A stretch of DNA of 64,000 nt from Macrostomum lignano (lineage: Eukaryota), in NCBI GenBank assembly GCA_002269645.1, contig NIVC01000010.1, positions 868,001 to 932,000 of the forward strand, written 5' to 3'. Shown piece by piece: positions 8,690 to 64,000 of this stretch (positions are counted from its first letter, which is position 1; each line of letters starts with the position of its first letter). The position numbers and the translations under genes are program-made. The notes beneath the pieces are model-generated. The model was not told the DNA's origin, searched no databases, and was given only the letters and a program-made list of their open reading frames with translations.

Positions 8690-9445
8690 AGGTAGATGCT
8701 GAGGCGAATCTCAGGTAAATTTTAGGAGGGAATCTCAGGTAGATTCCGGGAGGGTCTCACGTAGATTCAGGGGGGGATCTCAGGTAGATTCCGGGGGGAT
8801 CTCAGGTAGATTCGGTAAATCTCAGATAGATTCCGGATGATCTCAGGTAAATTCAGGGGGAATCTCACGTAGATTCGGGGAATCTCAGGTAGATTCCGGG
8901 GGATCTCAGGTAGATTCAGGGGGAATTTCAGTTAGATTCAGGGGCGAGTCTTAGGTAGATTCAGGGGGAATTTCAGTTAGATTCAGGGAAATTTCAGGTA
9001 GATTCAGGGGCGAGTCTCAGGTAGATTCAGGGGGAATCTCAGGTAGATTCAGGGGGAATTTCAGTTAGATTCAGGGGCGAGTCTCAGGTAGATTCTGGGG
9101 GAATCTCAGGTAGATTCAGGGAGGAGGAATTTCAGGTAGATTCAGGGAGGGGGAATCTCAGGTAGATTCAGGGGGAATTTCAGGTAGATTCAGGGAGGGG
9201 GGATCTCAGGTAGATTCAGGGGGAATTTCAGGTAGATTCAGGGGCGAGTCTCACGTAGATTCAGGGGGAATTTCAGGTAGATTTAGGGGCGAATCTCAGT
9301 TAGATTCAGGGGAATTTCAGGTAGATTCAGGGGGAATTTCAGGTAGATTCAGGGAGGGGGAATCAGGTAGATTCAGGGAGGGGAATTTCAGGTAGATTCA
9401 GGGAGGGGGAATCAGGTAGATTTAGGGGCGAATCTCAGTTAGATT
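8690..9445. repeat. ~21-bp minisatellite
   Basis: Unit TCAGGTAGATTCAGGGGGAAT(T). Confidence 0.92.
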
Positions 9446-42722: not shown

Positions 42723-45592
42723 ACAGGGAAGTAATAGACACAAACACTTCAACATGTATTGAAGGCATCAATAAGATTTAAAATATTTTTTCTAGTTTTT
42801 AGTCTATTACAATAAATCTCATTTGCTTGAGTAAAAAAATATCTTACTTTTAAAAATTGGTCAGTAATAGAAATTTAAGGAAATTTAACTAGTTTAAAAA
42901 AGTTTAATAAAGTTATCTATTTTATAGTTTAGAAAGTTGAAAAGATAAAATATTAAAATAGGGTGGAGCTAAAAAGAAGGTAAAAAGATAAAGACAAAAG
43001 GTAAAAATAAAAAATAAAAAATAAGGTTAAAGAACTTTTTATATTTAATTCAAGTTTTCAATACCTACATAACATATTTTTCCTAGAGTATCTTAATTGT
43101 AGCTTCAAAGGTAGTTGGCTTATTTTTTATGCAACTATTAAATTTTTAATAGTAACCTTATTTCTATGCCCAATTTTACTTAAGGTGCTTTTTCTATCAT
43201 CTATAGATAAGAATAAATCAAAATATAACTAGAATAGCCATGTTTATTCTTTGCAAAAATAGCTAAAATATGACAAAGGAAAGAAAAAGTATATTTTCTT
43301 TCTAATTTATGTTATATTCTATAGTTGTTTTGCAAAGTTATGAATTTGCAATAAAACAATATTTTATTTAAATTTGCTTTTTGCATACATTTTGGTCTTG
43401 GGTCTTAATAATATATCAAAATTGAATTTTGCTTTTGATGTTTCAAATTTTGAACCTAATTTTGCATTGAAACTAATTCAATTTTAATTTTGAATTATTA
43501 TACTAATAATTGAAAATCGATTCAAAACCTTGGTTATGTATTAACAATTAGGCATTCACAACCATGTCATTCAAGTAAAAAAATAAATAGAAATTAAAAA
43601 GAAGTAGGGTTCAACAACTTAGCAAGATGGTGAGAATCATCTTTTCTACCACACTCAGGAAGATTACATGTAAGCCGGAATTTTCCGGCCTACCATTGAG
43701 AAGTTTGGCTATTTTGGCATACCACTTTGGCGTACCACTTTGAGCTCGAGAAATTTTTGGCGTACCAATTTTGGTGAATAAATTGATGCGTCTAAAAAAA
43801 TTGTTATGTAAATTAACCTTTTTAGTTTTTACGTCAAATGAAGGAAAATTTATATAGTCTAGAAAGTCAGTGATAAACTTTTTGCTTTTTTACAATTAAC
43901 AATGAATAAAACTTGTGTAAATTATTGCTAAGAATGTAAATTTTGCATTCTTTTTTCTGTAGGTTTAATTCAAGTTTGTTTAAAATGAAAATATTTGTAA
44001 TATTTGAAAGAATTTTTGTACAAAAAACGTTTCTTAGAAAACTCAACTTGTGAAAACCGAATGACCTTTTTAGGAGGAATTTTTGGCATACATTTTAGAG
44101 AATTTTTTTGTTTTTGGCGAACACTGGCGTACATTTAGCTGAGATAGGATTCTTGTTCCGGCGTACACTACTACACAATCCGAACCGTGGCTTTTCTATA
44201 AGAAAAGATAATGTGGGGTATGCACATTATTCAAGGCCTTGTGCTATACCCACCTCAACCTCTATAGAAGCCTACTGGCTATACTCATTGGCTTAGATTT
44301 TAATTGGCTAAAGTTTAAGCCTTAATGAAATTGAACAAAATTGATTTATCTATTATCTAGAACTCTAATTAAAATAGCAGTAAAATGTAATAGTTTATAT
44401 TCTAAGTATCTCCTTTATATAAAGCTGAATGGACTAGCAGGTTTAACACGTATCTCTTCCTAGAAGGCTGGCAACTCAAATGTGGGACTTATAGGAATTG
44501 ATGCAAAATTTTCCTATGCAACAAATAGGTCTTAATTATCTTAAAAGTATAGATCTAAAGTTTCAAATATCTTGAAAATTTGATATTGTCTAACCTAGTG
44601 GCAGATTTAGAGAGAGACACATAAGGCATGTGTGGCAGGTACTTTGATAATAACTGTATTCACGTTGCCTTTCTTTACGCACAAATTTTGTTCCTGATAA
44701 AAAAACTTGACATCTATAAGCGCAAAATAATTTTTTCTTAGCCATAGATACTCACGTGCCATTAGTACTAGTAAATATGTTACCTAGTGGAAATTTTGTT
44801 TAATTATGTCCGCCATTTTTGCTGAAAAACATATAAATATAAGCGAAATAATTGACAGGAGAGCATACTCCTTGTCTAGCACTCTCTATTAGTCTAGCAA
44901 AGGTTTTAATTGGGCATTGCCTGACTCACTGTTCCTTATTTAGGCACTCAGCCCTTTCCCCAAGGCCTGTTCAGCCGAAGCATACAGCCTCTCCCCTCTC
45001 CCTAAGAAGGATCTTTTCAGCTATAAGCGTACAGCCTTTCCCCCTTTCAACCCCACAGACACGCGCAGTAATTACCTCACCCCTTCCCTAGTGAACAAGA
45101 GCTTCGTCTCTCTCCTTCCCTAACCCTCAGACCCCAGAATTTGACCTGGAGTTCCGCCAACTCCCTATCCGAACTCTAACTTCTGACTGACCCGGTATTC
45201 CGTTCCCCTACTTGGAAGTTTAACTATTAGAAAACCTGTCCCCCCCCTCTTAGCAATTTCGTTGAGCAGACTCTTCCCTATGAAAACATTCCCTATTAAT
45301 TATTAGAAAATCCCACTGTGCAATAATTCACTAGGCAACTCTGAACCGCCGCATAGCCCTCCCTCGGACAATTTTAATATATAGACAGTGTCTTGCCGCT
45401 TGGACACTTCACGCCCCCAGGAGCAACCCACGGCTTACTCCTGTTAGTAGTAGAATTTGCATCTTTCCTTATTCCCCAACTAAGTCCCTTGTGATAACTT
45501 GATAGAATAGGAGTCAGTAATCTCACCCTGCAACAGATTTAGCAACATCAGTAAGGTTTTAATAGAGTACCCAGGAACCCTGTAACAGATTT

Positions 45593-45606
45593 TGGTGGCT
45601 GCGGTA
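45593..45606 (+). other. Primer binding site, probably tRNA-Leu
   Basis: TGGTGGCTGCGGTA lies 5 nt after the LTR; its reverse complement resembles the tRNA-Leu 3' end ACCGC(T/A)GCCACCA. Confidence 0.65.
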
Positions 45607-45677
45607 AAGGATTAGAATCTGGTGAAATGCGCACTCAAACCCCAGTATAATTTTCCATCCCCTATCCCTGAAGTACA

Positions 45678-46667
45678 ATGGCCGCAGGAATTAACGAAGC
45701 CCTAGGACTCTTAGCTGAAGAGCTCCGCAACCGCTTAGAATTAGGTCCCCTCAGACATGTGAAGATCCAGAAGTACCTTCCCAGCCAAGATATTAGAATC
45801 TGGCTTACTGCATTTGACCAGAGATGTGAAAATGAAGGCATAGAAGAAGAAAACCGGAAGCAGGAACTGCTTACCAATTTAGACCTGAGTACTGTGTTTG
45901 CAGCAGTTCAACGCCTCAACCTCCCAGCTAATCTCCCCTATGAAGAGTTCAAAGAAAGACTAATCGAAAGATTTGGAAAAGTAGGTAGTTCCGCCGAATT
46001 TCGCGAAGAGTTTAGGAATCGCTGCCAAGGCAGAAACGAATCCACTGACAGCTTTGCCGATGCCCTAATAGAATTAGCCTCCCGCGCATTCCTGAACATG
46101 GATGCTGAGCAAAGAGAGGAAGAACTGGTCGAGCAGTTCATTAAAGGTGTGAGAACCCCTCCCGACACCCGTGAAAAGCTAATTTTTGCCCAACCGGCTA
46201 GTCTCCAAGCCGCCCGTAGAATGCTGCGCAGAATTGAAGCCGCTTACCAGATGTCCCACAAAGGTGGAATCCGAGTAACTAAAGATGAGAAAGAGGAGTA
46301 TAAAGGCAGAACCAATCAATTGATCATTGACCAGCAGACTAAGATTGACCGCCAAGAAAGGCTTATTCAGAACCTGCAGAAACAACTGGCCGAAACAACG
46401 CAATGCGCCCCGCCATCTCAGGTGTTCCCCCAGCAACAGTATAGACAGCCACCTCCTCAGCAGTACAAACAGCCAAATCCTCAGCTGTACAGACAGCCAC
46501 CCCAGCAGCAGTACAGGCCGCAACCTCAGCAGCAGTACAGGCCCCAGCTGATGAACCAACCGCCAAGGCGTGAACCCCCAAGAAGGAATGAGCGTCAGCC
46601 CCCCAATCCCAGATATGAGCCGCTGAAGTTCCGCAACCCCCGTGACTCCCAGAAGTCGGGAAACTGA
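45678..46667 (+). CDS. gag: Ty3/gypsy Gag, 329 aa, intact
   Basis: ATG ORF with capsid-like motifs (WLTAFDQRC, FRNRCQGRNES...FADAL, EQFIKG, PASLQAA), a coiled coil and a Q/P/Y-rich tail. No CCHC knuckle. Confidence 0.85.
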   Translation: MAAGINEALGLLAEELRNRLELGPLRHVKIQKYLPSQDIRIWLTAFDQRCENEGIEEENRKQELLTNLDLSTVFAAVQRLNLPANLPYEEFKERLIERFGKVGSSAEFREEFRNRCQGRNESTDSFADALIELASRAFLNMDAEQREEELVEQFIKGVRTPPDTREKLIFAQPASLQAARRMLRRIEAAYQMSHKGGIRVTKDEKEEYKGRTNQLIIDQQTKIDRQERLIQNLQKQLAETTQCAPPSQVFPQQQYRQPPPQQYKQPNPQLYRQPPQQQYRPQPQQQYRPQLMNQPPRREPPRRNERQPPNPRYEPLKFRNPRDSQKSGN

Positions 46668-47222
46668 GAAGCCAGGGTCGAGTTAAGAGGCCACGCCCCT
46701 CAGGCCAAAATATTGCTTACTCTCCGGCCTCCCCATCATTTCAAAATGCCCCCCAACCAAAATACCGGCAAACCTCCCCAGTACGGTTTCCGCTATCCCC
46801 GCAAAACCTCCCATGTACAGCCAATGCCTGTAAATAATGCGATATCTGTCTCCCCCAATAATTTTTCACTTCTTGCCTTTGATGATGCCGACGATGCCAT
46901 GCCAAATGCCCCCCATGACCCCCATGTGTACAATTCCCCTCATGCGACCACTTCCCATGTAACCAATGCGATTTCTGCTCATCACGCGTCCGCACCCTAT
47001 GTACCCACTGCGCTTGCACCCCATGTATCCCATGCGATTGAAGTCAATAATGCTCTATCCAGTGCTGAAACCCCCTCAAGGAAGCGACGAAAGCCAAAAC
47101 CTAATTCCCCATCCCGAATCGACCTGACCAAGCTAGAAGGCTATGAAGCTGTAATAGTCAGCGATATCCAGAAAGAATCGGTTGATTTCTTGCTAGACAC
47201 AGGCGCCAGAAATAAAAAATAA
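46668..47222 (+). pseudogene. Gag-pol spacer and aspartic protease N-terminus, truncated
   Basis: Same frame as gag after the TGA. Ends ...VDFLLDTGA (catalytic Asp at 47196), then the deletion junction. Confidence 0.75.
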
Positions 47223-49894
47223 TTAGAAATCTTGGCCCCCCTTCTTAGCAATTTCGTTGAGCAGACTCTTCCCTATGAAAACATTCCCTATTAATTATTA
47301 GAAAATCCCACTGTGCAATAATTCACCAGGCAACTCTGATCTGCCGCGTAGCCCTCCCTCGGACAATTTTAATATATAGACAGTGTCTTGCCGCTCGGAC
47401 ACTTCATGCCCCCAGGAGCAACCCACGGCTTACTCCTGTTAGTAGTAGAATTTGCATCTTTCCTTATTCCCCAACTAAGTCCCTTGTGATAACTTGATAG
47501 AATAGAAGTCAGTAATCTCACCCTGCAACAGATTTAGCAACATCAGTAAGGTTTTAATAGAGTACCCAGGAGCCCTGTAACACATGTATCTCATAGTCAT
47601 GATAGGTATATGCCAGAATGAAAATTCATGATTTTTCAATTTTATACTAACATAAAATTAAAAAAATTTATGCTAAGTACATGCTAACTGCTAAGTATGG
47701 TAAGATCTCATCAACTGAACACAGAAACATTTTGCAACATTCTTTCATATAATATAGGCCTAGGCTATAATAAAAGAGTTTTACATATAGCCCTAATGAA
47801 TAAAATAAAATTGCCCTGAAGTTGTTCAAAACATTTTTTAAATGATGTAACTTTTATAGACTCTTAAAATATACTCCTCATGAGACAATAAAAACAAAAG
47901 TCATTTATTGCATGTTTGGTTTTGAAGAACCCTGTTTGATTGATGAGATTATATTCTTAATAACTCAAAATTTAACTAGTCCTTATCAGTACAATGATGA
48001 ATAGATAAGAAAAAACTAAATCTAATAGCATAAATGACATTGGTTTGTCCACTTACACATAGAAATTTGTTAAATAAAAAAGTTATATAAAAATTTATAA
48101 AAAATGCTTGATGAGCAAAAATGATCAGTGCCTATTGCCTAGGCCTAATGTCAATGATTATGAGCAAGCAAGTGTTTGAAATTTAGGATAGGCTACAAAA
48201 CGTTTTGTGCAGTTTGTGCATATAGATTCATCAAATAGGCGATAGGCCTAGTTATATAGGATGATAAAGTCATTAAAAATAACTTTCAAAATCTTATTGT
48301 TATTAGGGTTCCTGACTTCCCTACTTGTAGATATTTCTATAACCTATATGGAGCATACAGAATGGTAGGGCCTACTCATAGGACTATAATCCAAAACCAC
48401 CCAAGTTGGCAAGGTCCTAATGGTAGTGCATTAATAAGTAAGGCTAAAAGTAATCTGCGCACATTATATTGTGCAGAAAAGAAACAAAAGCAGAGCACAG
48501 TTATCACATAAACTCAAGCAAATCAAGTCAACTAACAAGCTACCTGTTTTTTCGGCTCGATCGTCGTCGTCGGCGGGGCTGCTGTGGCGCGGCCAGTACC
48601 GGCCGGGCCGGGCTTTTTCAAATTAAAGCATACAGCCTTTTAAACAAGCAATAAATATATACAATCTATTTTAGTCTGTAGAAAAGGTCCAGTCATATTT
48701 TAAGTAGTTTTGAAAAGTAAAATTCGCTCTTTACAAGGCACAAAGCGCTCCTAGAAAATTATTAGATTTTGTAATTAGTTCAACAAACACGGGAAACGAG
48801 GAGACGCTGAGAGACTGGGCACAAATGTTTATTACCAAATATTTTTACTTCTCAATGACATTTTCTCTATAATACTTATTTATTTATATATAGACCGAGA
48901 TTAGCCCTTAATTTTTTTAATTGTGCGAAAATACATGCATTAATAAGTTTTCAAATATATAGAGCATAATACCCCACATGTAGACAACTCATTTTTTAGT
49001 ATATAGGAAATTTTCTAATTATGAACTGACGTCGAACGTGCAGCCCATTTTGGCGAAAGTATATTCAGAGACGCTTCGGCGAAGATGAATTTTTAGTTTA
49101 CATCGATGCAGATTTTGGCAAAATTGACCGCGCAGTTCTTCGAGGAAAAATTTATAATTGCAAATACAGCTGTAGCGACTGACAAAAATTGCTACGTATT
49201 GCGCGCGGAGCGAGTGTATTTCGCAGAGCGGAAAGAAAATGAAGCATGGAATGGGGATACAAAGAGCCTTATTATAGTAGGCCAGCGCGATATGAGATCT
49301 GAGCCAGCCCCCAGACACGCAGCTAGATCTCTCACAGAGGTTTAGCCAACCAATTGGGGCTCGGCCCACGCCGCACAGAGATGTGGAAGACGCATCCCTG
49401 CCGAGACAGTGCACCGGACCGTCTGCGGGCGGAGTGCACTTTCCGCCACAATACACTCGTATAAGCGCTCGTCAACATGCCATCAGCTGTGACGGATGTA
49501 GATGACATGCAGCATCGAAAATGTCGAACAGTAATTTCGCATCATCAATATGTCCAGATACGGAAAGGTATACGGATATAACTTGCCAGTGTAGATGTGC
49601 ATATTGTCTTTTGCTACAGATACATGTAAGTTGGTGGTGCAGACATGCCAGGTGCCCCGACGATCGAATCAGGTAGGCCGCCGCTAGCAGAGCCGCCCAA
49701 ACAATCAGGTGCCGCCGCTAGCAGAGCCGCCCAATCAGGTGCCGCCGCTAGCAGAGCCGCCCAATCAGGTGCCGCCGACTGAGGTACATCACTTAGGTCC
49801 ACGTACCCACAATTAAAATTGTGACATTGCATATTATAATCAAAATACCGATTCGAAATTGTGCAAATGCATGTACATGCACCTTTGGCACCTC

Positions 49895-51849: not shown

Positions 51850-52548
51850 AGCCGCTGACATGGCAACACAATTATCGCAAGCCTTTGTATAGCTATCGGA
51901 TTGGGTACAGAGACACAGAGTGTCAAGATAATCGTTGAGAAGTTCAACCCAAGCTGAATCTTGATTTCCTAAGAGGTAATCTTTGCTTACTTGGAGACAG
52001 CTGACATCGCCCCAGATGAGCGCAAGTCCTTGCTAGGGCAACAGTTCCATAGCATTGACGATGTGCTGTCAGCTCAGCAGAACCTCCAAGAGGCAGATGA
52101 GGTTTCTCGGCGCTTAGCGCGAGAGCAGCCCAAATATGATTAGCGTAGGGACGATAGGAACAGAGATCAGAATCGCCCCAGCGACAAAGAATATCGGCGC
52201 AGATGGGTCCGCATGCTGGAGTCAGAGGAGGGGTAAGAAGTAGAAGAGATGCTTGCAGATTTACAGCAGCGCCAAAACAGCCTAGATGAGACCGTCGGCA
52301 GGATTTATGGCGCTATGAGCCAGGTGGCGGAGAGGATAGATCAGGCCATGATAAGCCACTCAGATCAGTGGGATGGAGACCTCACCGTGGTAGAAGACGC
52401 TGAGTATGCTAGTCAGCTGCCTGAGGGCAAGTCCCCGCCTCCCTCGTCTCAGAATCAGTCAGCGAAGCCCGCACTATTGAGGCAGAACGCGATTTATGGC
52501 GATTCGGCCAAGCAGACGAGCCAAGCAGAAATGAAACAAATATCATGA
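51850..52548 (+). pseudogene. Degraded gag-like remnant
   Basis: Multiple stops; ...YLETADIAPDERKSLLGQQFHSIDDVLSAQQNLQE..., followed by an R/D-rich stretch and a coiled coil. Confidence 0.3.
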
Positions 52549-53248
52549 AGATATGACTAATCAGTTTGAAAATCAACCTATACTAAATGTAGATTCTAAT
52601 CATTTACTGAAAATTCCCTACCTTCATTCTATTAAGCAGAAAAAACTCAATTTTTAAGCATTAATCTTTAACCTATCGAATCGAGAATGCATTTGAGAGC
52701 GTATTCGGGACTCCGGACGGATTCATGTCGACAAAAACAACGTAAATAAATCGAATACACTACTTAAATGTTGCAAGTACATGTACGGGCTTGTAATATA
52801 TGAATCGATTAGACGGACAAACGTAATTAATTTGTTTTCAAAAAATCAACCCCACATGAATGACAATATATTGATTTAAAACTGCTCAAAATGTAAAACT
52901 AGGATTGCAAATTTTACCGCGAATTAATTATCGAGTTAAAGATTGGCTGCGGTCTCCAAGCACCTGTCAACAGCTACAGTAGTTTTTCGCTGCCATAGAG
53001 AATATACCTGACCACCTGGCCAAACATGGAATTCAGTCTGCGAACAGACGTCTCGTCAATTTTTGGACGATTACTTCGCCACAGGTGTAGCAGATAATTG
53101 TTGCGCCAATTCCACCTGGGTATTTTTGTGTTATTGGTGATATCGCCGTACAGCATCCTGAGTTCCCGTTCGGTCCAACCCGGACGCGCAAAGGACTGGT
53201 TCTCCACTCGGCATAGATGCGGAACTACATAACGCGTAGATTGTTGTT

Positions 53249-53288
53249 GATTTTGGAGGTGAGGTGGGTGTCAGAGCCAATGCAAATT
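53249..53288. repeat. 40-bp perfect inverted repeat, left arm (partner 62771-62810)
   Basis: GATTTTGGAGGTGAGGTGGGTGTCAGAGCCAATGCAAATT is the exact reverse complement of 62771-62810. Confidence 0.95.
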
Positions 53289-53369
53289 GGAAACCCCCTC
53301 TCCCAAATAAGTTTTCAAAAGGCGTATATATATTTACACAAAAAGCCGGCCGAGCTTTGATACGTATAT

Positions 53370-54020
53370 TTATTTAACATACACAATTGGGTGACGACCC
53401 AAAACATTTGAATAATAGCGAGCAGGAGCATTTTGCAAACAGTTTACAATCAAGTATGAGTAGGGGTCGCGAGTAGCATCCTCATACGTTTTGACAAAAC
53501 TTTTTGGATTAGTGGGGACCAGCTGCCTTGCAATATGAGACACTGTGCTGGCATCCCGTACATTGCGGAATAAAACAAGGTAGTTCGAATTGAGCGACTG
53601 AGTTCGGTGCTCCTTACCCTTTGCAAACAGGTTTTGCACAAGATACCAAAGTCGGAACCCCACGTGGGAGACTTTGCGCGTGAAAAAAGTTGTAAAAGCG
53701 CCACTCTTTTCCATGGCATGCATTTGGTCGTCGACGACAAGCAGAATATTTGGTTCAGGGACATATTGTTCAGGATCAAATGTACACGAACGAAAATTTA
53801 CAGGGTACGGCAATTCAAACAGTTCAGGATCCGGATAGTGGCCAAACCAGTCTACGCGAATCGGCTTCGGATCTTGAAAAAATTCTTGTCTCAATAGGTT
53901 TTTCACAAGTGTGGTCTTGCCGCTTTGAGCCACCCCAGCAAAAATTGCAGACGTTTTGGGGGCAAATTTTAAAGAGTCGGGGTCTATTGTTTGATACATT
54001 TTGATAGGCCGCCCAATCAT
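53370..54020 (-). CDS. A32/FtsK-like packaging ATPase
   Basis: Walker A GVAQSGKT, Walker B LLVVDD, and SLNSNYLVLFRNVRD. Intact. Confidence 0.92.
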   Translation of the reverse strand: MIGRPIKMYQTIDPDSLKFAPKTSAIFAGVAQSGKTTLVKNLLRQEFFQDPKPIRVDWFGHYPDPELFELPYPVNFRSCTFDPEQYVPEPNILLVVDDQMHAMEKSGAFTTFFTRKVSHVGFRLWYLVQNLFAKGKEHRTQSLNSNYLVLFRNVRDASTVSHIARQLVPTNPKSFVKTYEDATRDPYSYLIVNCLQNAPARYYSNVLGRHPIVYVK

Positions 54021-54022
54021 AT

Positions 54023-54474
54023 TTATGGATGATGCTGCTTTATTTGTAGACAGTGATTCTGCACCATCAAGTCGTTCTCGTAAAGATTTGTGCTATAACA
54101 GTCGCGCAATATTTTTTCAATTGACAGACCCTCCAGAAAGTGTTTTTCAGCCACAAATATTACATGAGCCCCGCAGGTCACACTCAGCGGATGCTGTACA
54201 GGATGCCGGTTCATGGCCACCTCCACAGGGACATACTTTGCGATCCACAACTTTAATAAATCTGGCACAGGATCGATACACAAGGGGTCAAAAAATGTCA
54301 CGCTCTCATCGGCATGAAGACAAATTAAAGCCCAGTGAGTGCCTGGTAGATTGCCAGTGTCAAAGTTAATCACGTATGCAGCAGGATAAACAGGCTGCGG
54401 AATCCTGTCAACTGGTGTTACTCGAACAGGGACAGGTAGTATTAGACGTTCTAATATATGTCTAGACTATTCAT
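54023..54474 (-). pseudogene. Adenain-like maturation cysteine protease with a +2 frameshift after codon 6
   Basis: ATG at 54474 (MNSLDI) is out of frame by a TA duplication (catatatta). Catalytic region NFDTGNLPGTHW...FFDP...VQHPLSVTCG is intact; 452 nt = 450 + 2. Confidence 0.85.
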
Positions 54475-54524
54475 ATCGGCATGAATATGGTCGTTATTCG
54501 AGAATAAAAAAGAGATGTTTGTTT

Positions 54525-55808
54525 CTACACGTAGTCTAGAATAACCTGACGACCGCGAGTGATTTGCACAGTATTGTCAAAGTAGCCAAACACCAACACG
54601 TTGATTCCTGCGGCCAAGGCAGCAGAAAACTTTATTTGTAGCGTCAGATTCCCTCGCTCGCGAGGCATGCTATGCCCGCCCAGCTCCATGTCGGGCATGA
54701 GATTCCAGGCGAAGAAGCAGTAGCCAGCTCCATAGTCGGAATATGATACGTCAATATCCAGGTCCCGATTCATCTTTCCTAGGCTTTTTAGTAGCATGGC
54801 ATACTCGCGAGCATAGCTATGAACACCGAATCGAGGAGTAAACGGTTGTCCACACAGACTGACTCCGTCCTTATACAGAGCGACACTGTCTGCCCCAAAC
54901 GGTTCAAAATTAAACGGGTTATGTGTAGCCACACCGTTGTATGCGCCGCTGTTCACCATGCCAACAACCACTAGTTTAGGCTTTTGTTCAGGAAATATAT
55001 TATTGATTGACATGTCCCGAACACCGCCAGCCACTGAAGTATTGTGCACAACAAGTCGCTCAATCGGATAGATTGCATTCTGTTTGCCTAGTTGTTCTTC
55101 AATCTCCAATGCCAATTGGGGGTTTGCCTTGACGCGGCGCACATGTAGTTTGGCACTCTCGAGTACTAGCCGCGCATCAACCCCGTCCGCGTGGTTTTCC
55201 AGAACGAAGCCGGAATTGTGCATGGTCAGCGTAATCACCATATCAGTGTATGGCAGTAGCATTCGGTCGTTGGTAACAAAAAAGTCTAAACTAAGAGGTC
55301 CATAAAGGTGAAAGGTGCGTGAGTTTGCCGCCATCGCCTTGCAGGCTACAAAGCCAGGATTTCCAACCACAGCCATTTGACCTCCAGCGTCCTTTGCGTA
55401 GCCCATCATTCTCAGTTGATTGGTTTTTGAATCGTGTCCGTAATTCAAACACGTGCGAATATAGGCCTTGTAAGCGTGGTTGTTATTGCTCGACTCTACG
55501 TGTGTCCCGTTGATTGTCAACGTGACGTTTTTAAACATGCTTTCAAGGACGTAATTGACCGGCGCAACATTCGAATCAGCAGCAAGATTTGTACCATTAG
55601 ACTGCTTAACGCGGGCCTTAATCTCGAGGTCAATGTCGTTAAGATCGATAAACGTCTCACCACCAACAATCCTAAATTCGACCACGCTGGCATTTTCAAC
55701 ACTGGCAACAGGGTGAACTTCTTCAGTGGTGGCGCTAATTGCAGCAATTTGGTGTGCGCGAGGAGCAAAAAGCTCGAATTCCGACTTTGTACACAGGCAC
55801 TCAGTCAT
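54525..55808 (-). CDS. Double jelly-roll major capsid protein (427 aa)
   Basis: KSEFELF...Q, FIDLNDIDLEIK, NYVLESMFKNVTLTING, YAYKAY-like HAYKAYIRTCLNYG, P.LVVVGMV, NPFNFEPF, GNLTLQIKF motifs. Intact. Confidence 0.92.
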   Translation of the reverse strand: MTECLCTKSEFELFAPRAHQIAAISATTEEVHPVASVENASVVEFRIVGGETFIDLNDIDLEIKARVKQSNGTNLAADSNVAPVNYVLESMFKNVTLTINGTHVESSNNNHAYKAYIRTCLNYGHDSKTNQLRMMGYAKDAGGQMAVVGNPGFVACKAMAANSRTFHLYGPLSLDFFVTNDRMLLPYTDMVITLTMHNSGFVLENHADGVDARLVLESAKLHVRRVKANPQLALEIEEQLGKQNAIYPIERLVVHNTSVAGGVRDMSINNIFPEQKPKLVVVGMVNSGAYNGVATHNPFNFEPFGADSVALYKDGVSLCGQPFTPRFGVHSYAREYAMLLKSLGKMNRDLDIDVSYSDYGAGYCFFAWNLMPDMELGGHSMPRERGNLTLQIKFSAALAAGINVLVFGYFDNTVQITRGRQVILDYV

Positions 55809-55826
55809 TTTTCATTCAACAGCGGC

Positions 55827-56219
55827 TTAGTGTGGTGCTCTAATAGACAGATCAGTTATTGGCACGGGTTTTTTATTTATAGAGTCGAAAATATCAGAAT
55901 GCTGCAGTCTTTTTCTCGTTTTTTTGTTAGTCATCTTTCTTCGTCTTTGTCTGCCGCTACCTCGTTGTGCGACTGTGTCCTTGAAAGCATCTTTAGCTGC
56001 CTGGACAGAGTTACGCAATGCCGCTTCTTTCAAGTTCCCGCCTTGATCGAGTGTGTCGCTAACTGTTGTAGCTAGGGCTCGTGTTCCGTGGCGAAGAATA
56101 TTTTTGCCAAAACTCTTTAAAATTGGCAGGGCAAATCGGGCAATGCTGCCAAACAGGCCGTTGCCGCGCTGTGCACCGGAAAATACCGGTAAAGCTCCTC
56201 CGATCAAGATTGAAGGCAT
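55827..56219 (-). CDS. pVI/cupiennin-like membrane-lytic or core protein (130 aa)
   Basis: QRGNG and QRGSG adenain-type sites, amphipathic GLFGSIARFALPILKSFGKNILRHG, basic C-terminus. Confidence 0.8.
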   Translation of the reverse strand: MPSILIGGALPVFSGAQRGNGLFGSIARFALPILKSFGKNILRHGTRALATTVSDTLDQGGNLKEAALRNSVQAAKDAFKDTVAQRGSGRQRRRKMTNKKTRKRLQHSDIFDSINKKPVPITDLSIRAPH

Positions 56220-56259
56220 ATTGTCGATCAGTTGCTACCTTTTATTCGTGAAAACTTCT

Positions 56260-57417
56260 TTATTTATAGCTTAATTTCACGAATGTGATCGATAAAACAG
56301 TTTTGCCTCGAAGAATCCGATCCATTAACTTGCCCATATCGTCACAGATTTGCACCTCAATGGTTTTGAATGGGTGTTTCACCAACGGTAAGTAGGATGG
56401 ATTGACAAACTCGTAGTACTCTCGTTCGCCGTATACCTTTTCATTCAAAGGAATTGCCCCAAGCAGGGGGACTTTGACGTCTCCAACAATGGCAGAGTCG
56501 ACAATATTTGAATAGATGTACATAGTTTGTACACCATTTGTTAAATCGATTGGTCGTTTAGCGGTCTTTGGAGTTTCATTGAAAACATCTTCGCGAAAGC
56601 CGAGAATGGCAGCAAGCTCTCCAATGTCGAATAAAATGTTTTCAATGGGTTTGTACTCACACCGGTTCAGAAAAGGGTTGTAGCGGAATGCATCCACTCT
56701 CGTCGCTGGACTTATTGGGAGCTTTGAAACGACGCCCCAAAGCGCTCCATTAACATAATTTAAGAGCTCATCAGGCGTGCGGTAGAATCCTTTAGCAATC
56801 CGCAGTGACGTTCTAGAAAGCCAGACACTCTTTTCAAACGTTAGAGTCATCGGACTCTCTATGGAGGAGGAGGACTCCAATTCTATAGCGAATACTAACG
56901 AATTTCTTGGGTTTACTAAAAAAGTCGTTACTTCGATATTTGATTTATTTCCAGCGTCATCAACCTTTTTAAACATGCTACGCACATTACTGGACAGCCT
57001 AATGTTCGCACCATACCATGATTTGTTCACAATTGAAATTTGGCCTTCCTGTGAACGCTCAATGCAAATCATCGCATTATCGTCTTGCTCATATTTTAGA
57101 TCGGCGATGATTGCATCAACCACTTCGTTGGCTGTTGATAGCCCCGCGGCGAGAGAAACCGACGCAAACTGTTTATACGTGGAGGTGGGTTTTTCTCTCA
57201 CCTCAATGTCAATCACTTCATCCTCGGGAGCGTTGGTCAGGACATCAACCATTCGATTATCGGGGACGGTTTTGAATTCTTTACAAAAGTAGATCCGTTC
57301 GATGCAGACTTCATGATTCGGAAAGTGGAGGGTGTCGGGCAAATTAATGCTATAATGTGCCGAATTATTCTCAGGATAGTGCTCAACGCACGCATTGCTA
57401 GGTAGGAATAGATGCAT
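56260..57417 (-). CDS. Minor capsid (penton) protein (385 aa)
   Basis: LPSN...YPENNSAHYSINLPDTL start; MYIYSNIVDSAIVGDVKVPLL...NPSYLPL...TIEVQICDDMG C-terminus. Confidence 0.88.
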   Translation of the reverse strand: MHLFLPSNACVEHYPENNSAHYSINLPDTLHFPNHEVCIERIYFCKEFKTVPDNRMVDVLTNAPEDEVIDIEVREKPTSTYKQFASVSLAAGLSTANEVVDAIIADLKYEQDDNAMICIERSQEGQISIVNKSWYGANIRLSSNVRSMFKKVDDAGNKSNIEVTTFLVNPRNSLVFAIELESSSSIESPMTLTFEKSVWLSRTSLRIAKGFYRTPDELLNYVNGALWGVVSKLPISPATRVDAFRYNPFLNRCEYKPIENILFDIGELAAILGFREDVFNETPKTAKRPIDLTNGVQTMYIYSNIVDSAIVGDVKVPLLGAIPLNEKVYGEREYYEFVNPSYLPLVKHPFKTIEVQICDDMGKLMDRILRGKTVLSITFVKLSYK

Positions 57418-57451
57418 TGTAATATACTACACGTTTCGAGTGTATGTGTGT

Positions 57452-58519
57452 TCATCCTTGTCTTATATTTATAACTTCCTCAACTGGTACAAATGCATTG
57501 AACGACTCGGGATAGCCGCGCCAACTAACGAAATGATGAGCGACACCATTGATGATGACATTGCGACGCAGAATTTTGTCTATAACAAAGCGGTCTGGTC
57601 GAACCGTCTTTGAAAGTTCATTATAGTAGAATCGACCCTCGATTTGTTCTCCAGATAGGTCGGAAATGCGATAAAAATGAGGCGGCCCCGGGCATACTTG
57701 AGACACAACGTAAACTTCTTCGCTGTACAAATCGTATGCTTCCGATGCGTATGCTCGACGAGATTTTGAAATTCTGACAAAGTCCCCTTTTTGGTAAACT
57801 GGTTCATCATATTCAGGATCCTTGTAGAGCTTTTCCCACAATTCTTTTTGGTTGTGCAGACCGACACTCGAAGGTTTCATATCAATAGTAGAGTGTACTG
57901 TGTTGTTGTAACTTTTAACCAATATTGGCAAATAGTCGATCCAACGCCACGTGTTTTTATGCTCAAAGTAGCGAGCTAAACGTTTTCGGAGAGTCCTAAT
58001 CAGCCTTTCAGCCATATTTGCCTTGTATACAGAGTTTGTACTGTACATTTTGATATTATGGGCTTTCAGTAAGTTCTGCATGCGATTGTTATAAAACTCG
58101 GTACCTCGATCAACGTGTAGATATAAAGGCTTAATGGGGAAGTCTTTGATCATGCTTTCAAAAGCCTTTGGAGTGTCGCTTTTCAATTTTATTGACTGAC
58201 AAAAAGCCAATTTACTAAGCACGTCAATTGCAACTAGAATATATCGATGACCATCATTCCATTGTTCGTATCGTGACATGTCCATCAAATCCGCTTGCAC
58301 AGTTTCCATGAAGCCTCCTGACATTACTTTTCCGGTTCGGAATTTTCTTTTAACCCTCTTGTGCCGGGTGTAGCTCGATTGGGTCTTCAGCCATTCGTCG
58401 GTTTGGCGTCTCGTCAGGGAGGGGACCAGCCGTTTGGCCTCCTGATATACACGGGCAGCATTTGTAAAAGCGGCGTCCCCCTGTTCGTACACTCTCCGAA
58501 GAGCGGTTTTCACCCTCAT
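57452..58519 (-). CDS. Retroviral-type (rve) integrase with C-terminal chromodomain
   Basis: D (QADLMDM), D (HVDRGTEF), E (MAERLIRTL); chromodomain IDKILRR...VSWRGYPESFNAFVP. Intact. Confidence 0.95.
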   Translation of the reverse strand: MRVKTALRRVYEQGDAAFTNAARVYQEAKRLVPSLTRRQTDEWLKTQSSYTRHKRVKRKFRTGKVMSGGFMETVQADLMDMSRYEQWNDGHRYILVAIDVLSKLAFCQSIKLKSDTPKAFESMIKDFPIKPLYLHVDRGTEFYNNRMQNLLKAHNIKMYSTNSVYKANMAERLIRTLRKRLARYFEHKNTWRWIDYLPILVKSYNNTVHSTIDMKPSSVGLHNQKELWEKLYKDPEYDEPVYQKGDFVRISKSRRAYASEAYDLYSEEVYVVSQVCPGPPHFYRISDLSGEQIEGRFYYNELSKTVRPDRFVIDKILRRNVIINGVAHHFVSWRGYPESFNAFVPVEEVINIRQG

Positions 58520-58682
58520 TCGCAACTAGATTCGATGCACAGCATGAGTAATTACACTTGAACTCCACAGACGGTTTGTCTGAGCAAAGCTTTGAAGTTA
58601 CAGCTGCGGCACCCATGATCCAAAAACAGATTATTTATCATGAAAATGATTTCTATTTATAGTTTTTTTAACGTCTCGTATT

Positions 58683-59306
58683 TTACTGCTGGTTTCTGCC
58701 GCCTCTTTGGTTCGCGAAGTTGGTATGAAGCATGCCTGTAGGCATCGCTGCCACGATCTTCATATTTTTAATTTCATTCAGGCCACTGGCTTGGTCTTTG
58801 TGGAAGTCGTTGTAGAAATCATTAGTTCCAATTGCTTGCTCGACTAAAAAATCGTCTCGATCCGGATCCGTGCCGACTTCTTTTTTCACACTGACTTCTT
58901 CTTGTTGGCGTCGTCCTTGTAGAGCTTTTGCAATATCTACCTCTTCGGTCAGGGCCCAAAAAGCGGTACTATATTTTGGGCTTGGGCGGTCGCGCCTTTC
59001 ATTCGATGTAATCTCCTTCAATAGATCGAAAATATTGCTTCCTGGCCAGGTTTTTCCATCAAATACAATTTCCCACGACTTGTTGTACTCCAAATTTGGG
59101 TATCTTTCTGTCAGCATGTCCCAAACACGTTGTTGTCGTTCAGGAAAACGATTACTCTTCTTTTGCTTGATCTGACTTAGTTTATTTTGGAGTTGAGTGT
59201 TGTATTCAATGAGTTTTTCATATTCTGTTTTGGATGCAATTTCTCGGGGTGCGCCTTGACTTAGTCTATTAAATTCTTCTTCTGGTACAACAACGTATTT
59301 ATTCAT
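58683..59306 (-). CDS. Conserved Polinton hypothetical protein (207 aa)
   Basis: MNKYVVVPEEEF start and FDGKTWPGSNIFDLL motif typical of Polinton unknowns; ATG 1 nt after the upstream stop. Confidence 0.7.
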   Translation of the reverse strand: MNKYVVVPEEEFNRLSQGAPREIASKTEYEKLIEYNTQLQNKLSQIKQKKSNRFPERQQRVWDMLTERYPNLEYNKSWEIVFDGKTWPGSNIFDLLKEITSNERRDRPSPKYSTAFWALTEEVDIAKALQGRRQQEEVSVKKEVGTDPDRDDFLVEQAIGTNDFYNDFHKDQASGLNEIKNMKIVAAMPTGMLHTNFANQRGGRNQQ

Positions 59307-59307
59307 T

Positions 59308-59662
59308 TTAGCGACCGAGTAGTCCGCCAAACAGGCTTGATATTAGCGGTGCAGCAACAGATGCAAGGATGGGTAGAAAGCCACCGACTTGAGGATTCGA
59401 GAGAAGCATATTCTTCTTCCTATTTATAGACAATTTTGTGTCTGCCAATTCACGCAACGATCTTCTGTATCGCTTTAATCGCAGATACTGTTTCGGAGAA
59501 AGATCGATATTTCCCCGGAGCACGTTGTGACTCAATTCACAGAGACAATGAATTAGTTCCTTGCCTGCACCTCGAATAATGGCCCGCCGAAGAGTGGGAC
59601 GGGCTTTGGCGAGCTCTGCGAGCTCGCCGCGACAAGAACAGTCTGGAGATTCCGTTTGTCAT
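59308..59662 (-). pseudogene. Adenovirus pX/mu-like small core protein with a +1 frameshift
   Basis: ELAELAKARPTLRRAII...LIHCLCELSHNVLRGNIDL...QVGGFLPILASVAAPL. The ATG at 59662 is out of frame by 1 nt (355 nt). Confidence 0.78.
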
Positions 59663-59807
59663 TTTGTTTAGCAAAAAGATGTTGGTTGCAGTGCACTGCA
59701 ATTTATGCACAATATATTTATAGACAATTTTATAGCAGCTTGTACGTACATACAAATTCAGTACAGTCGTAAAACAGTAAAGTAAAGTTACGCAACAGCT
59801 ACATGGA

Positions 59808-60293
59808 TTAGACATGCAAAACGCTAGTCACATGATCGTACATTTGACAGAGCTCTTTAAAGTTTCGTATTCCAAGGAAAACAAGGCGGCCATTCTTTCC
59901 GCATAATAAACATTTAGCATTGCGAAATGGAGACTTTATTACTATTCCATTGAAAACTTCACACTCCCACTTCACCCAGCGGGACCCGGAGTATGCAATT
60001 TGGAAAAAGTTTGGCCATCTGTCTACTTCAGCGCGGTAAGTACTAGTGGTAACAACAACAGAAATTGGTTTACATTGAGGAAAAAGACGCTAAACTTGGT
60101 TGACTGAGCGACAACCGAATACAATTGCAGACAAAGAACGCTGAAAAAAGTTGATTGTACATTTTCCTATTCGCAAATTGATAAGAGCTCTTGGTCTGCG
60201 AAATGTCCGTGCGCTCGCCCAGTCCAAGTCAGGCATGCGGCTCCATTTCGCGCAAAACACTCGGTTCACACACTCGACGTTCTGCAAGTAGAT
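59808..60293 (-). pseudogene. TATA-binding protein (TBP)-like two-repeat core, with an internal TAG and no in-frame ATG
   Basis: Translation: IYLQNVECVNRVFC...ALINLRIGKCTINFFQRSLSAIVFGCRSVNQV*RL...KWECEVFNGIVIKSPFRNAKCLLCGKNGRLVFLGIRNFKELCQMYDHVTSVLHV*. It aligns by eye to TBP motifs LQNIV, [66 protein letters not shown]. Confidence 0.75.
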
Positions 60294-61018
60294 TTTTCGG
60301 CAGTTTTTACTTTCGTATCCTTCTTGGGGGCTTTCGACCGCTTCTTTGATTCGTTGGCTGCCACTAGTTTCGATTGATGCTGTCGCTTTCTGGCCTGATT
60401 TTTAGGCACCTTTGGCTGCTTCTCCTTGACAAGCTTTGGTGGTTTCTTTGCTTTCTTGCTTACTTTCTTGGCGCCTACCTTGATTTTTGGAGGTGGCGTC
60501 CAAAAGCAACGATCGAATGCCTGTTTGGCTTCTTCGACAAACTGTAGCTGTTGAATTTTTGGCATTGCGGTCAAAACAGCGTCTCGAATCACGGCCGTGT
60601 CGAGAGTAAATAGAATCCTGTAGTAGCCGCTCTTGTTTTTGTAATCCTCTACAGGCAGTCCATTTTGGTCGTTCATTTTAAAGTCGTGAGCCAGCCCAAA
60701 CGCTGCACTGTCACCTCCAAACGCTGGGTTGTAGCCCAGCAGAGCTAGACTTTCGCTGGAAAGGTGCTCCGCCACAGTGTTGAAAGTGTAGGGTATGCAG
60801 CTTTCAATGTGTTTTTGTGCAATGATGATGAATTCGCGACCTTCGTTGTCAGTACGCACACCCTTGACGATCAAAACAGGGACCGCATTGGCCAAGTAGA
60901 GAGGTCCCTGTTCGTCATATTCAATGTCAAACGTTTCAACCCCGTTGAAGCTCGGACCTCGCGGTTTGAGTGCCAGCAGCTCTCGCTTGACGCAGTTGAA
61001 GTCTTGCACTGTCTCCAT
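60266..61018 (-). CDS. Hypothetical 250-aa protein: globular N-domain plus Lys-rich tail
   Basis: ATG ORF with GTATATAA 61 nt upstream; beta-rich C-terminal part (SGYYRILFTLD...KIQQLQF); overlaps the TBP-like start. Confidence 0.7.
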   Translation of the reverse strand: METVQDFNCVKRELLALKPRGPSFNGVETFDIEYDEQGPLYLANAVPVLIVKGVRTDNEGREFIIIAQKHIESCIPYTFNTVAEHLSSESLALLGYNPAFGGDSAAFGLAHDFKMNDQNGLPVEDYKNKSGYYRILFTLDTAVIRDAVLTAMPKIQQLQFVEEAKQAFDRCFWTPPPKIKVGAKKVSKKAKKPPKLVKEKQPKVPKNQARKRQHQSKLVAANESKKRSKAPKKDTKVKTAEKSTCRTSSV

Positions 61019-61034
61019 GTCTCTTGTCTGTTTA

Positions 61035-61983
61035 GAAAATTTGCAGTTACGGGCGATTGCAGATGCTCCGGGCTGGTGATTATATACCCGAGAGTCTCAA
61101 TAAGTTTTTGTTTTAATTACACGATAACGAGCTTTTTACAGAGTTGTCGTTATCGAGGATTCCGGAAAAATGAACCTTTTGTTCTTATTTTCGGGTGCTG
61201 GCGTTGGAGGTGTGCTGAAATCCTTGCTCCAAGTTGCTGGTAGTTCAAGCTTTGGCGGTCTGTTCCTCTTGTGCTTTGGCAGCCAAAAATTCCAAATCTT
61301 TTGTTGCTCCTCCCACGACGGATTATACAGATCTTGATGGTTCCGAAAACGTATTTTTTGGCGATGCTCTTCACTTAGTATCGGAGCCAGTAATCTCTCC
61401 ATTCGTGCTAAATCAGCTTTGAATCTCATTTTGTCCCGTAGTTGCTCATTTATCCTGGCTGCTGCGTAGTCTTGGCTGTCGTAGGGGCCTTGATTAATTT
61501 CCTCGACCTTGGCATTGAAGGTGACTAATCGCTCGGAAATCGGTTTGCTGTGGCAAATGCACAACCAGTCAGCAGATTTTTTCAAGGCCTCATATTCGTC
61601 TTTTTCCTCGTTCGATAATAGGGGGTAGTCTCTGGAAATCCAGCTCATTTCTTGTCAAGCACTTGCTGCGTTGTTCGCACTAGTGGTGGGGATGTTATTC
61701 GAGCTTGAAAAACTGCCGAGAATCCGAGAAAAATTTGCAGGTACGGGTGCTTGGTGCCCCGGGTTGGTGCTTATATACCCGAGAGTCTCAATAAGTTTTT
61801 GTTTTAATTACATGTTAACGAGCTTTTTACGGTGTTGTCGTTATCGAGGATTCCAGAAAAAATGAGACTTTTGTACCTATTTTCGGTGCTGGTGTTGGAG
61901 GTGTGTTGAAATCCTTGCTCAAAGTTGTTGGCAGTTCATGCTTTGTCGGTCTGATCCTCTTGTGCTTTGGCAACCAAAAATTG
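61035..61983. repeat. ~260-bp direct repeat pair (61035-61295 and 61729-61983)
   Basis: Shared TTATATACCCGAGAGTCTCAATAAGTTTTTGTTTTAATTAC...GCTTTGGCA.CCAAAAATT with scattered substitutions. Confidence 0.9.
61136..61648 (-). CDS. Hypothetical 170-aa protein
   Basis: ATG ORF with an upstream TATA box; its C-terminus is duplicated at 61827-62009. Confidence 0.6.
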   Translation of the reverse strand: MSWISRDYPLLSNEEKDEYEALKKSADWLCICHSKPISERLVTFNAKVEEINQGPYDSQDYAAARINEQLRDKMRFKADLARMERLLAPILSEEHRQKIRFRNHQDLYNPSWEEQQKIWNFWLPKHKRNRPPKLELPATWSKDFSTPPTPAPENKNKRFIFPESSITTTL

Positions 61984-62009
61984 CTTGTCAAACACTGCGT
62001 TTTCCACAT
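61827..62009 (-). pseudogene. Truncated paralog of the 170-aa ORF (C-terminal 50 aa)
   Basis: NFWLPKHKRIRPTKHELPTTLSKDFNTPPTPAP versus NFWLPKHKRNRPPKLELPATWSKDFSTPPTPAP. Confidence 0.6.
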
Positions 62010-62770
62010 GATTGGGTTGTTAATTGAACTTGGTGAATTTAGATAAACGGCCGAGAATCCAAATTTTCTTATTTATAGTTTGCTGTCTGAACAAAGTTGG
62101 TTTGGCATCTTGTTAAACGAGAATATTTCATGCATAGATGTTTGTTTTTTCAGACCTTGATGACGTGTCTGGCTATAAAGTTAGCATTGTGTCTCGACCG
62201 GGTTGTTGCGTAACACTGCTGCTGGTAGCTATAGCGGCCAGCGCAGGGCAGAGGGGTGGACAGCGGCGATTTACAGCGGCTGACTCATCATGCCTCCGCG
62301 CGGGGCCGCCAATTAATTGTGGGGTCAAAGAATATTTCTTGGATGGGTGGGCGCTACAATACTGTGCGTACACGAAGTTTGGTATAAAAACAGCTATGGG
62401 GTGGGCGGACGCTACAATTCTGCGCGTACACCAATTTTGGGATGGACAGTAAATATGGACAAGTAATAATATGGACAGTTATGGGGTGAGTGGGCGCTCT
62501 AATTCTGCCAATTTTTGGTATATGGACAGTTAATATGGACAGTTAATTCTGCGTACACAAATGCTGCATTGTGTGGGGATGGGGGCGCGCGCGTTTCTAC
62601 GTACAACAACTGTGAAGCGCTAATTATGCGTACTATATTGTACTGGTCGTCGCTTCTGTACAATACAGTGTACACTGATTACATGTATAGATTTTACATG
62701 AGAGTATAAATGTCTCACATAATGACTCTGGACCAATTAGAATCGGTCTAATGTATTTAGATAGGCGTTG

Positions 62771-62810
62771 AATTTGCATTGGCTCTGACACCCACCTCAC
62801 CTCCAAAATC
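62771..62810. repeat. 40-bp perfect inverted repeat, right arm
   Basis: AATTTGCATTGGCTCTGACACCCACCTCACCTCCAAAATC. Confidence 0.95.
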
Positions 62811-64000
62811 GACACTTATCTGCACATTACGTAGTTGCGGATATCGTTGCCAAATCTGCTGGGGCAGCAGCACCGAATGCTGAGCCCACTGCCCGTCATC
62901 AAAAGTCTGGTAGAGCATGTACCACAGCATTAGGAAAATGTCTCTTGGTTTGGTCATGAAGGCACCGATGGTCAGACCGATGGATGACTCGCGGCCGATC
63001 ACGCAGTCAAAACTGCAAAGTTTTTCCTTCAATTCTAAGGTTTCAACTTTTTTGAGAGTTTGTAGGCATTGACAAGCATTTCGCTACCCATTAACACGCA
63101 CGCGGGATGCGTGCTATTGTCCATAGAAAAAAACATTAGTTTAACGAGTTTTTAGATGACCCAAATATTAATTATTAGATGATTAATTTTTTATTTATAC
63201 GGTTTATAATTGTAAATTATAAACAACAACTACTTATAGCATGAAAATGAGGGGGAAATGTCTAAAGCCATAGTTTCTCTCGAAGAATTAGTATTTTTGA
63301 TAGATACGCCCTACTCAAACACAGTGTTAATAAAATTGTTGTTGCCGTCAATGCAAACACGCATATTCTTGGTCGGACGTACAGGCCTCGATATGAACTG
63401 GCCGAGGAACCGGCTCGTCAATTGATTGTGGGGTGGCATTGCAACTGGTGATCCGTCATCACTTGCGTGCAGACAGTAGAACTGATAGAGCCGCTCGCAT
63501 TAGCAGAGAAAGACGCCTCATTGGACGGCATTGTGCTTGTGCTTGGAATATGCCGGCTTAGTGCACAGTTCACTGCCTTGGAACTCCTGAACAGACTGCG
63601 GTCCCGGCACCTGGTTAAATACCTTTTGACCGTCTTCTCACATTTCTGACCGGTAATAAGCATTATGTCTTGCAGCGAATGGCCAGCGGCGTCTAGATCG
63701 CACACGGCGAAATCCAAAAACGTGGGATAAAACGGTAAAACAAATCTGCGGACATTCGATGGAAAGTAATGTATCTAAAAAAGGTTTTTGAAAGATAGAT
63801 AGGTCTTTAGAAAATAGTTCTGGATAAAAACTATTGTTTTCATGCTTTATATTGTTGAATAAACAAGAAAAACCACAAAAAAGCATTTTGAAAGTCCGAG
63901 TTGACCAATTTGCAATTTTTTGTTTCACTTTTTTTCATTATTAAACAATTAATTTTAAGACTTGTAGGCCTTAGAGAAGGCTAATTTTTTTACTACTTAC

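Follow-up and report, generated by a model that had tools for sequence, protein, structure and literature searches.

A strongly diverged TBP homologue without a start codon in a PolB-less Polinton-type family of Macrostomum lignano, likely spliced to an upstream domain and a candidate activator of late genes

NCLDVs carry an RNA polymerase of their own, which distinguishes them from the element described here, in which there is none. Nonetheless, the TBP-like protein of one of them, ASFV pB263R, resembles that of the element in being a divergent viral TBP with fewer Phe, and it is predicted to bind a TATAAATG-like box (PMC5825884). Closer in layout are the herpesviruses that encode a TBP, which share with the element the lack of their own RNA polymerase and the presence of a short box common to late genes (PMC12529657), TATTWAA in the late promoters of beta- and gamma-herpesviruses (PMC12529657, PMC7498053). 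KSHV ORF24 consists of a Pol II-binding N-terminal domain followed by a TBP domain that reads the short late box (PMC12529657, PMC7498053), and this order is paralleled in the element by a predicted fusion. In ORF24 all four Phe are present and the TFIIB-binding acids are absent, and the protein depends on five partners (PMC12529657, PMC7498053), whereas the element TBP keeps two Phe and the acids; even so, and by analogy, this herpesvirus protein is what the element TBP likely works like. As for the relatives of Polintons, the legend of Fig. 5 of Starrett et al. (PMC8502044; preprint 10.1101/697771) has already labelled a gene in MELD viruses with an adintovirus-like PolB as a TBP. This is a likeness in that a TBP-like gene sits in a Polinton-related virus, but the label belongs to the section on non-animal datasets, and section 3.4 and the supplement of that paper give no sequence, promoter or function for it (PMC8502044). 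That label, with no characterisation, was all that a search of the open literature found on a Polinton TBP; a previous reading of this locus, made from the sequence only, did not know TBP as a standard Polinton gene.

The window analysed here is a stretch of 64,000 nucleotides of the M. lignano contig NIVC01000010.1 (positions 868,001 to 932,000), and all coordinates refer to it (Table 1). The TBP-like gene is part of a whole element flanked by the 6-bp target duplication TGCGGA (53218-53223 and 62836-62841), whose ends (53224-53228 and 62831-62835) read ACTAC...GTAGT and whose left inverted repeat is shorter than in sister copies. The same termini are found in most copies of group A, to which the element belongs, in contrast to the AGTAGT...ACTACT of the PolB-bearing group-B copy C114. 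The seven group-A copies traced from TIR to TIR span 8.3-10.8 kb, and none of them gives a PolB match in a test that was positive in the three group-B regions; due to this, the element is a PolB-less Polinton-type element, without full membership of the Polintons/Mavericks. What it shares with Polintons, Mavericks and adintoviruses is the integrase, the ATPase, the protease, two capsid proteins, TIRs and the 6-bp duplication (the capsid, protease and ATPase names coming from Polinton motifs and from similarity to PolB-bearing copies), while the absence of pPolB, the size of about 10 kb and the termini set it apart. Its former description as Polinton/adintovirus-like stands for the integrase, the repeats, the duplication and the virion genes, but not for the polymerase. 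Pfam returned nothing above the cut-off for the ORFs of the virion block, and the major capsid protein and the ATPase match those of PolB-bearing Polintons of the same genome at 25-37%. Rfam gave no match over 52000-64000.

Table 1. Features of the element and of its TBP unit, in positions of the window
Feature	Position	Strand	Remarks
Whole PolB-less Polinton-type element	53224..62835	-	9,612 nt, inverted repeats at the ends
Virion block	53370..57417	-	ORFs; names from Polinton motifs
Presumed packaging-ATPase-like ORF	53370-54020	-	named by Polinton motifs
Presumed cysteine protease-like ORF	54023-54466	-	named by Polinton motifs
Presumed major capsid-like ORF	54525-55808	-	named by Polinton motifs
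Presumed core-like protein ORF	55827-56219	-	named by Polinton motifs
Presumed minor capsid-like ORF	56260-57417	-	named by Polinton motifs
Retroviral-type integrase with C-terminal chromodomain	57452..58519	-	Pfam rve E 9.8e-10, Chromo E 0.057
TBP-like coding region, predicted exon 2	59808..60281	-	157 codons and TAA
In-frame TAG	60090-60092	-	breaks the window copy only; absent from 19 other close copies
Predicted intron	60282..60478	-	197 nt; AAG/GTAGGC ... CTTGCAG/AAC
Predicted exon 1, conserved 180-aa domain	60479..61018	-	ends ...KIK at the donor; dN/dS 0.078
Variant box TACAAATA	54041..54048	-	before packaging-ATPase-like gene; same place in family 2
TATAAATA box	55874..55881	-	73 nt before major-capsid-like gene
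TATAAATA box	56261..56268	-	49 nt before core-protein-like gene
TATAAATA box	57466..57473	-	56 nt before minor-capsid-like gene
TATAAATA box	58654..58661	-	small ORF 58350-58616 follows at 45 nt, integrase ATG at 142 nt
TATAAATA box	59421..59428	-	122 nt before ORF 58683-59306
TATAAATA box	59715..59722	-	before ORF 59308-59658, frameshifted near its start in the window copy
GGTATATAA box, candidate early promoter of the TBP unit	61080..61088	-	70 nt before upstream-domain ATG
Second GGTATATAA box	61771-61779	-	precedes ORF 61136-61648

Some further features of the element and its surroundings can be listed apart. At L025:9288-9830 and 8900-9283, family 2 (the sister family introduced below) carries a gene with a presumed Fic motif (HPFSDGNGRTAR), together with one further ORF; in the window copy that place is taken by a 691-nt duplication (61064-61291 / 61755-61982). 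The right end of the element falls inside a frame (62757-63083) with no Pfam match, presumably resembling a glycosyltransferase exon. Elsewhere in the window, the stretch 45232-47526, in which two direct repeats of 300 nt (96%) enclose a gag-like ORF (Pfam Retrotrans_gag, E 0.0019), was read as a short LTR element without pol, and the broken frames at 63418-63934, also without a Pfam match, end in a tyrosine-recombinase-like C-terminal motif (ITGQK...Y) that we assume to be Crypton-like.

Once the single TAG is read as X, the minus strand from 60293 to 59811 gives 161 residues in which both TBP-like repeats follow each other, and every motif quoted in the sequence-only reading was found there, in the order given. 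Its two structural remarks held as well: the Phe of INFF and EVF are retained and the other two intercalating positions replaced, and the helix between the repeats (H2) is shortened to about 7 residues. As for database support, the single protein of the window copy gave no Pfam, phmmer or PDB match, so the PF00352 assignment that had been proposed was obtained with five of the seven family members (best E 2.3e-5) and not with the window copy by itself. Two outside homologues were found at 67% in a similarity search, while a profile run against 1.84 billion representatives returned four matches, the weakest of them an ordinary TBP. With a profile of seven sequences against the PDB, the first 34 of the 41 rows at E<=1 were TBPs (best 1.5e-6), and the profile-profile comparison with 11 other TBPs reached a probability of 97.6% over 149 columns, against 0.2% for reversed controls; the resemblance is more than chance would give. 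In the structural comparison, the AlphaFold model, of low confidence (pLDDT 49.3), has the strand-helix order of TBP, and the top match among 48,161 chains was the TBP 7o4i_O (rmsd 2.7), albeit with a Z of 6.3, below the safe value of 8, and with 71 aligned residues that cover repeat 1 only. The ESM Atlas gave no usable match for the TBP-like domain or for the upstream domain.

The TFIIB-binding acids of the TBP stirrup are E186 and E188, and in the element protein both Glu and the Phe of the E-x-E-x-F stirrup are invariant in the seven sequences. That this acidic stirrup binds TFIIB is described in a source that names the yeast residues E184 and E188 (PMC12529657). Among the traits of a canonical TATA-bending TBP, the element protein hence keeps the acidic stirrup but only two of the four Phe, and one DNA-contact Asn position is also changed. 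It resembles cellular TBP/TRF (PF00352) in the predicted two-repeat saddle order, the stirrup and the C-terminal helix, and differs from it in an identity of 16-21% (16% to the host TBP, 16-21% to the TBPs of groups B and C of this genome), in the lost Phe and short H2, and in having no start codon of its own and a likely fusion to a viral domain.

The gene is not peculiar to the window. At DNA level it has at least 40 matches, of which, among those listed, 31 are at 94-100% and 9 at 75-79%, and a protein search of the genome gave 90 rows. Intact copies, whose existence had been left to be checked, are thus available, as 40 of these rows are full-length and open (19 of the window family, or family 1, and 21 of family 2, whose TBP is at 78% to it), although some of the 40 may be duplicated haplotypes. 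The 20 closest copies comprise 12 open ones, 2 with a stop and 6 with a frameshift; the stop at 60090-60092 was looked for by exact anchor in 12 of the 19 other close copies and by tblastn in the rest, and it is private to the window copy. Between the two families dN/dS is 0.088 for all 157 codons, or 0.10 if the first 25 are taken separately, and the remaining five frames of the region hold 3-10 stops. The TBP-like gene is, in consequence, under purifying selection and alive in its family, and we are almost certain that a genuine TBP homologue, kept by selection, is encoded by this PolB-less Polinton family.

How this frame begins is less obvious. It had been regarded as a stand-alone ORF read through one stop, a view that had to be abandoned, since no copy examined has a start codon: there is no in-frame ATG ahead of the TBP frame in any of the 20 close copies nor in family 2, where the first Met appears only in the last helix. 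The A5 run at 60293-97, suspected of being a sequencing error, is identical in 13 of 13 aligned copies, so that no sequencing frameshift there hides a start. An internal ATG is equally rejected, given that family 2 has no Met before the last helix and that the selection on the first 25 codons means that the first strand is translated. What does precede the TBP frame is another ORF, with its ATG at 61018, whose tail it overlaps. Unspliced, this ORF encodes 250 aa (stop at 60266-60268), the spacer between the two domains being read as a Lys-rich tail. Its conserved 180-aa domain matched nothing in Pfam, PHROG or the PDB, and its fold model (pLDDT 34.5) is unusable; with this and a non-significant PHROG ssDNA-binding match (E 0.55) in one of seven homologues, its identification as an SSB is unsupported. 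As a separate observation, the called proteins of two metagenomic TBP homologues at 31% (P0006 and P0007) lack the first strand, as if the gene were startless there too.

The overlap would be explained by an intron. The donor AAG/GTAGG (at 60478, after codon 180) and the acceptor TTGCAG/AAC (at 60282) are present in the 20 close copies and in family 2, and seven further copies have the donor in every case and the acceptor in five, the two changed ones being decayed. Both sites are in phase 0, the acceptor is the sole YAG in the last 40 nt of the spacer, and the features of a spliceosomal intron (a GT donor with G at +5, a YAG acceptor and a kept frame) are all found; within the spacer of the window (60282..60478) there is neither an ATG nor a TATA. 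Outside this genome, five homologues of the upstream protein were found. In the seven homologues the similarity ends exactly at K-V, and the next residue is always G, R or C (a background of 13% for such residues), which implies a G at donor position +5, even if the relatedness of the seven sequences reduces this evidence to about three independent states. The TBP start is also encoded in the +1 frame of the outside tails, with 33 of 33 residues compatible for P0013/P0003 and 18 of 18 for P0015/P0004, as opposed to 2-7 of 29 in shifted controls, and two pairs of outside upstream and TBP homologues come from contigs of the same size. Scans of viral contigs, metagenome contigs and phages found nothing of the DNA of these homologues, so their splice signals rest on protein frames.

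Based on these conserved signals, the TBP is most likely, and we would say probably, exon 2 of a fusion spliced to the upstream gene, and the product likely to result is a 337-residue fusion of the 180-aa domain and TBP. The gene span formerly given as 59808..60293 would be right at its downstream end, the coding part most likely beginning at 60281, after TTGCAG, and not at 60293. The identical runs at the donor and the acceptor (15 and 14 nt) give no support to this, as runs of 14-26 nt occur elsewhere in the gene pair. Apart from that, one family-2 copy (L075, G000:C4486:39127-39600) has a 66-nt spacer that turns the upstream ORF and TBP into one open frame of 375 aa, perhaps by an assembly indel.

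An alternative use of the same acceptor, ranked second and rather improbable, is a start supplied by a spliced leader (SL): a host SL RNA ending in AUG would be trans-spliced to TTGCAG, yielding a free TBP of 158 aa with the same role. The 21-nt 3' end of a flatworm SL that finishes in ATG (PMC8629364) has 61 exact copies in the genome (control 0), the phase-0 acceptor would put the leader AUG in frame, TTGCAG matches the trans-splice motif [T/C]TNCAG reported for a flatworm (PMC8629364), and in Schistosoma translation is known to start at SL AUGs (PMC9851317). However, for trans-splicing to predominate, no cis donor should precede the acceptor (PMC8629364), and here a conserved one lies 64-200 nt upstream, which disfavours this start with respect to the spliced fusion; in addition, no SL-like loose end at the acceptor was seen among the run-contig matches listed.

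It is also conceivable, but improbable, that there is no splicing and that TBP is made from the unspliced message, by a TTG start (at L-Q-N) or by ribosomal frameshifting. No splice joint was present in the contigs of 8 run alignments (7 different runs, whose RNA status is a guess), and every contig that spans the spacer is unspliced, in four of four runs for family 1 and two of four (X2 and X5) for family 2, with X11 showing a gap over the family-2 spacer that, at its low depth, carries no weight as evidence; in reading these figures it must be considered that the runs cover the whole family-2 element evenly and that contigs drop rare forms. Moreover, while family 1 has spacers of 195-200 nt, the others measure 64, 187, 85, 67, 67 and 67 nt. 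In six lineages (the five outside homologues and family 2) the spacer length is 1 mod 3 and the upstream frame stays open, so that a +1 frameshift would fit too. Against it, the family-1 spacers of 195, 196, 197, 199 and 200 nt change the frame offset (0, +1 and +2), and the 196-nt variants stop before the overlap, so that a single frameshift rule fails: this variation is tolerated by a splice but not by a fixed frameshift, for which no conserved slippery heptamer was seen by eye either. Regarding the TTG, the acceptor TTGCAG doubles as the code for the L-Q of the TBP motif LQN, and the two families and P0003 all retain the TTG; in P0003 it is the start chosen by the gene caller, and L-Q stays while the N is altered. 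Nevertheless, initiation at an internal near-cognate codon is inefficient when a strong ATG lies upstream, the I-S-E that P0011 has in register would correspond, judging from the protein, to TTT-CAG (an acceptor, not a start), and the conserved donor is left unexplained by any reading without splicing.

With the spliced fusion as the preferred reading, the question is what it would act upon. Each family has seven copies of the box TATAAATA on the coding strand and none on the opposite one, compared with shuffle means of 0.18 and 0.16 (maximum 2-3). In family 2 all seven lie 26-129 nt ahead of an ORF; in the window five of the seven do so, and one of the other two precedes the ORF that is frameshifted in this copy. 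The upstream gene has a different box, since the GGTATATAA found before it in the window lies 53 nt ahead of the same gene in family 2. Unlike the non-canonical late box of herpesviruses, TATAAATA falls within the canonical consensus TATAWAWR, and the host TBP could therefore read it. The suggestion that the element drives its own TATA promoters agrees with the position of TATAAATA before the structural genes, but a canonical box would be open to the host TBP as well; the other suggestion of the sequence-only reading, a competition with the host TFIID, is a hypothetical one.

On these grounds, a mechanism can be proposed in which the host Pol II and the host TBP would transcribe the TBP unit from the GGTATATAA box. 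The unspliced message would give the 180-aa domain with its basic tail, and a spliced minority, in which 60478-60282 would act as a weak intron, would join the viral domain in frame to the TBP saddle. This fusion may bind TATAAATA through its two retained Phe and recruit TFIIB by means of the invariant E-x-E-x-F stirrup, while the shortened H2 would remove the surface for TFIIA and for TBP regulators, and it would thereby switch on the capsid, packaging and integrase genes behind TATAAATA. As the family lacks PolB, genome replication would need a polymerase in trans. The role of a late-gene activator is the one that we infer as most likely, and the reading as a whole, i.e., a strongly diverged, startless TBP, likely a spliced domain-TBP fusion and a predicted activator of late genes on TATAAATA, is put forward tentatively, at slightly less than an even chance.

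An improbable competitor for this role is that of a decoy, in which the protein would soak up TFIIB, or bind DNA ends or single strands, and thus damp host transcription or aid packaging, the boxes being read by the host TBP. The replaced Phe and Asn positions point in that direction, as do the invariant acidic stirrup, the weak ssDNA-binding match of one upstream-domain homologue mentioned above and the parallel with the TBP of Giardia, which lacks three Phe and prefers single-stranded DNA (PMC12209930). Nonetheless, both families keep two promoter classes, one for the TBP unit and one for the structural genes, which is the layout expected of an early-encoded activator of late genes, as in beta- and gamma-herpesviruses (PMC12529657).

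The late-gene activator proposed here belongs to a genome rich in TBPs. A Pfam search gave at least 150 matches over the cut-off, from the 150 scored of 330 candidates, host TBP and TRF2 included, and of 10 other TBP places, 9 adjoin Polinton integrase, capsid or ATPase genes, the tenth being a broken TBP of the same kind. In the PolB-bearing group B and in a broken lineage C, TBP has its own ATG and overlaps the tail of a different upstream gene. Group B (G000:C96, C114, C130, C136, C84, C878, C414, C100 and C4909; L050-L063, L066-L067 and L069) consists of elements of about 17 kb, where the upstream ORF is exonuclease-like and the gene beyond the integrase is presumably PC4-like. The third lineage (L072, G000:C1769:130650-131330), at 34% to group B, has the same upstream overlap in a broken Polinton and is interrupted by a retroelement integrase fragment. 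A tree of 18 rows, which has long branches and includes 4 cellular references but no NCLDV, puts all the element TBPs on one side (SH-aLRT 93, not starred). Grouping with the host TBP is rejected (p-AU 0.018), and for TRF2 the test falls just short of rejection (0.062). The probability that the gene is a host TBP/TRF retrocopy, inserted into a single copy of the element and decayed there, is thus practically negligible, and a recent one is excluded from the sequences, since, despite the stop of the window copy and the tolerance of the AU test for TRF2, the TBP sits at the same place in both families and next to the same upstream gene in outside contigs, has 40 open copies and a dN/dS of 0.088, and is only 16% identical to the host TBP, with which its grouping is rejected.

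As virion genes are present in Polintons and an RNA polymerase is absent, the timing of their genes is of interest, and the host lineage here is a flatworm amenable to laboratory work. A wider interpretation, which we consider somewhat unlikely, would be that a polymerase-less animal Polinton independently reached the herpesvirus solution, with a spliced domain and TBP mimic bringing Pol II to late boxes, that host RNA processing (intron retention or an AUG-ending leader) gates the passage from early to late, and that three deeply diverged Polinton lineages each have a TBP of their own. Genes like this one are overlooked by annotation, since they lack a start codon, overlap the frame in front of them and, as a single protein, give no Pfam hit. 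The predicted splice-dependent fusion parallels the domain layout of the herpesvirus viral TBPs and, together with the two promoter classes, a self-encoded TBP would provide an early-to-late switch, open to experimental test, for a DNA virus that is small and integrates.
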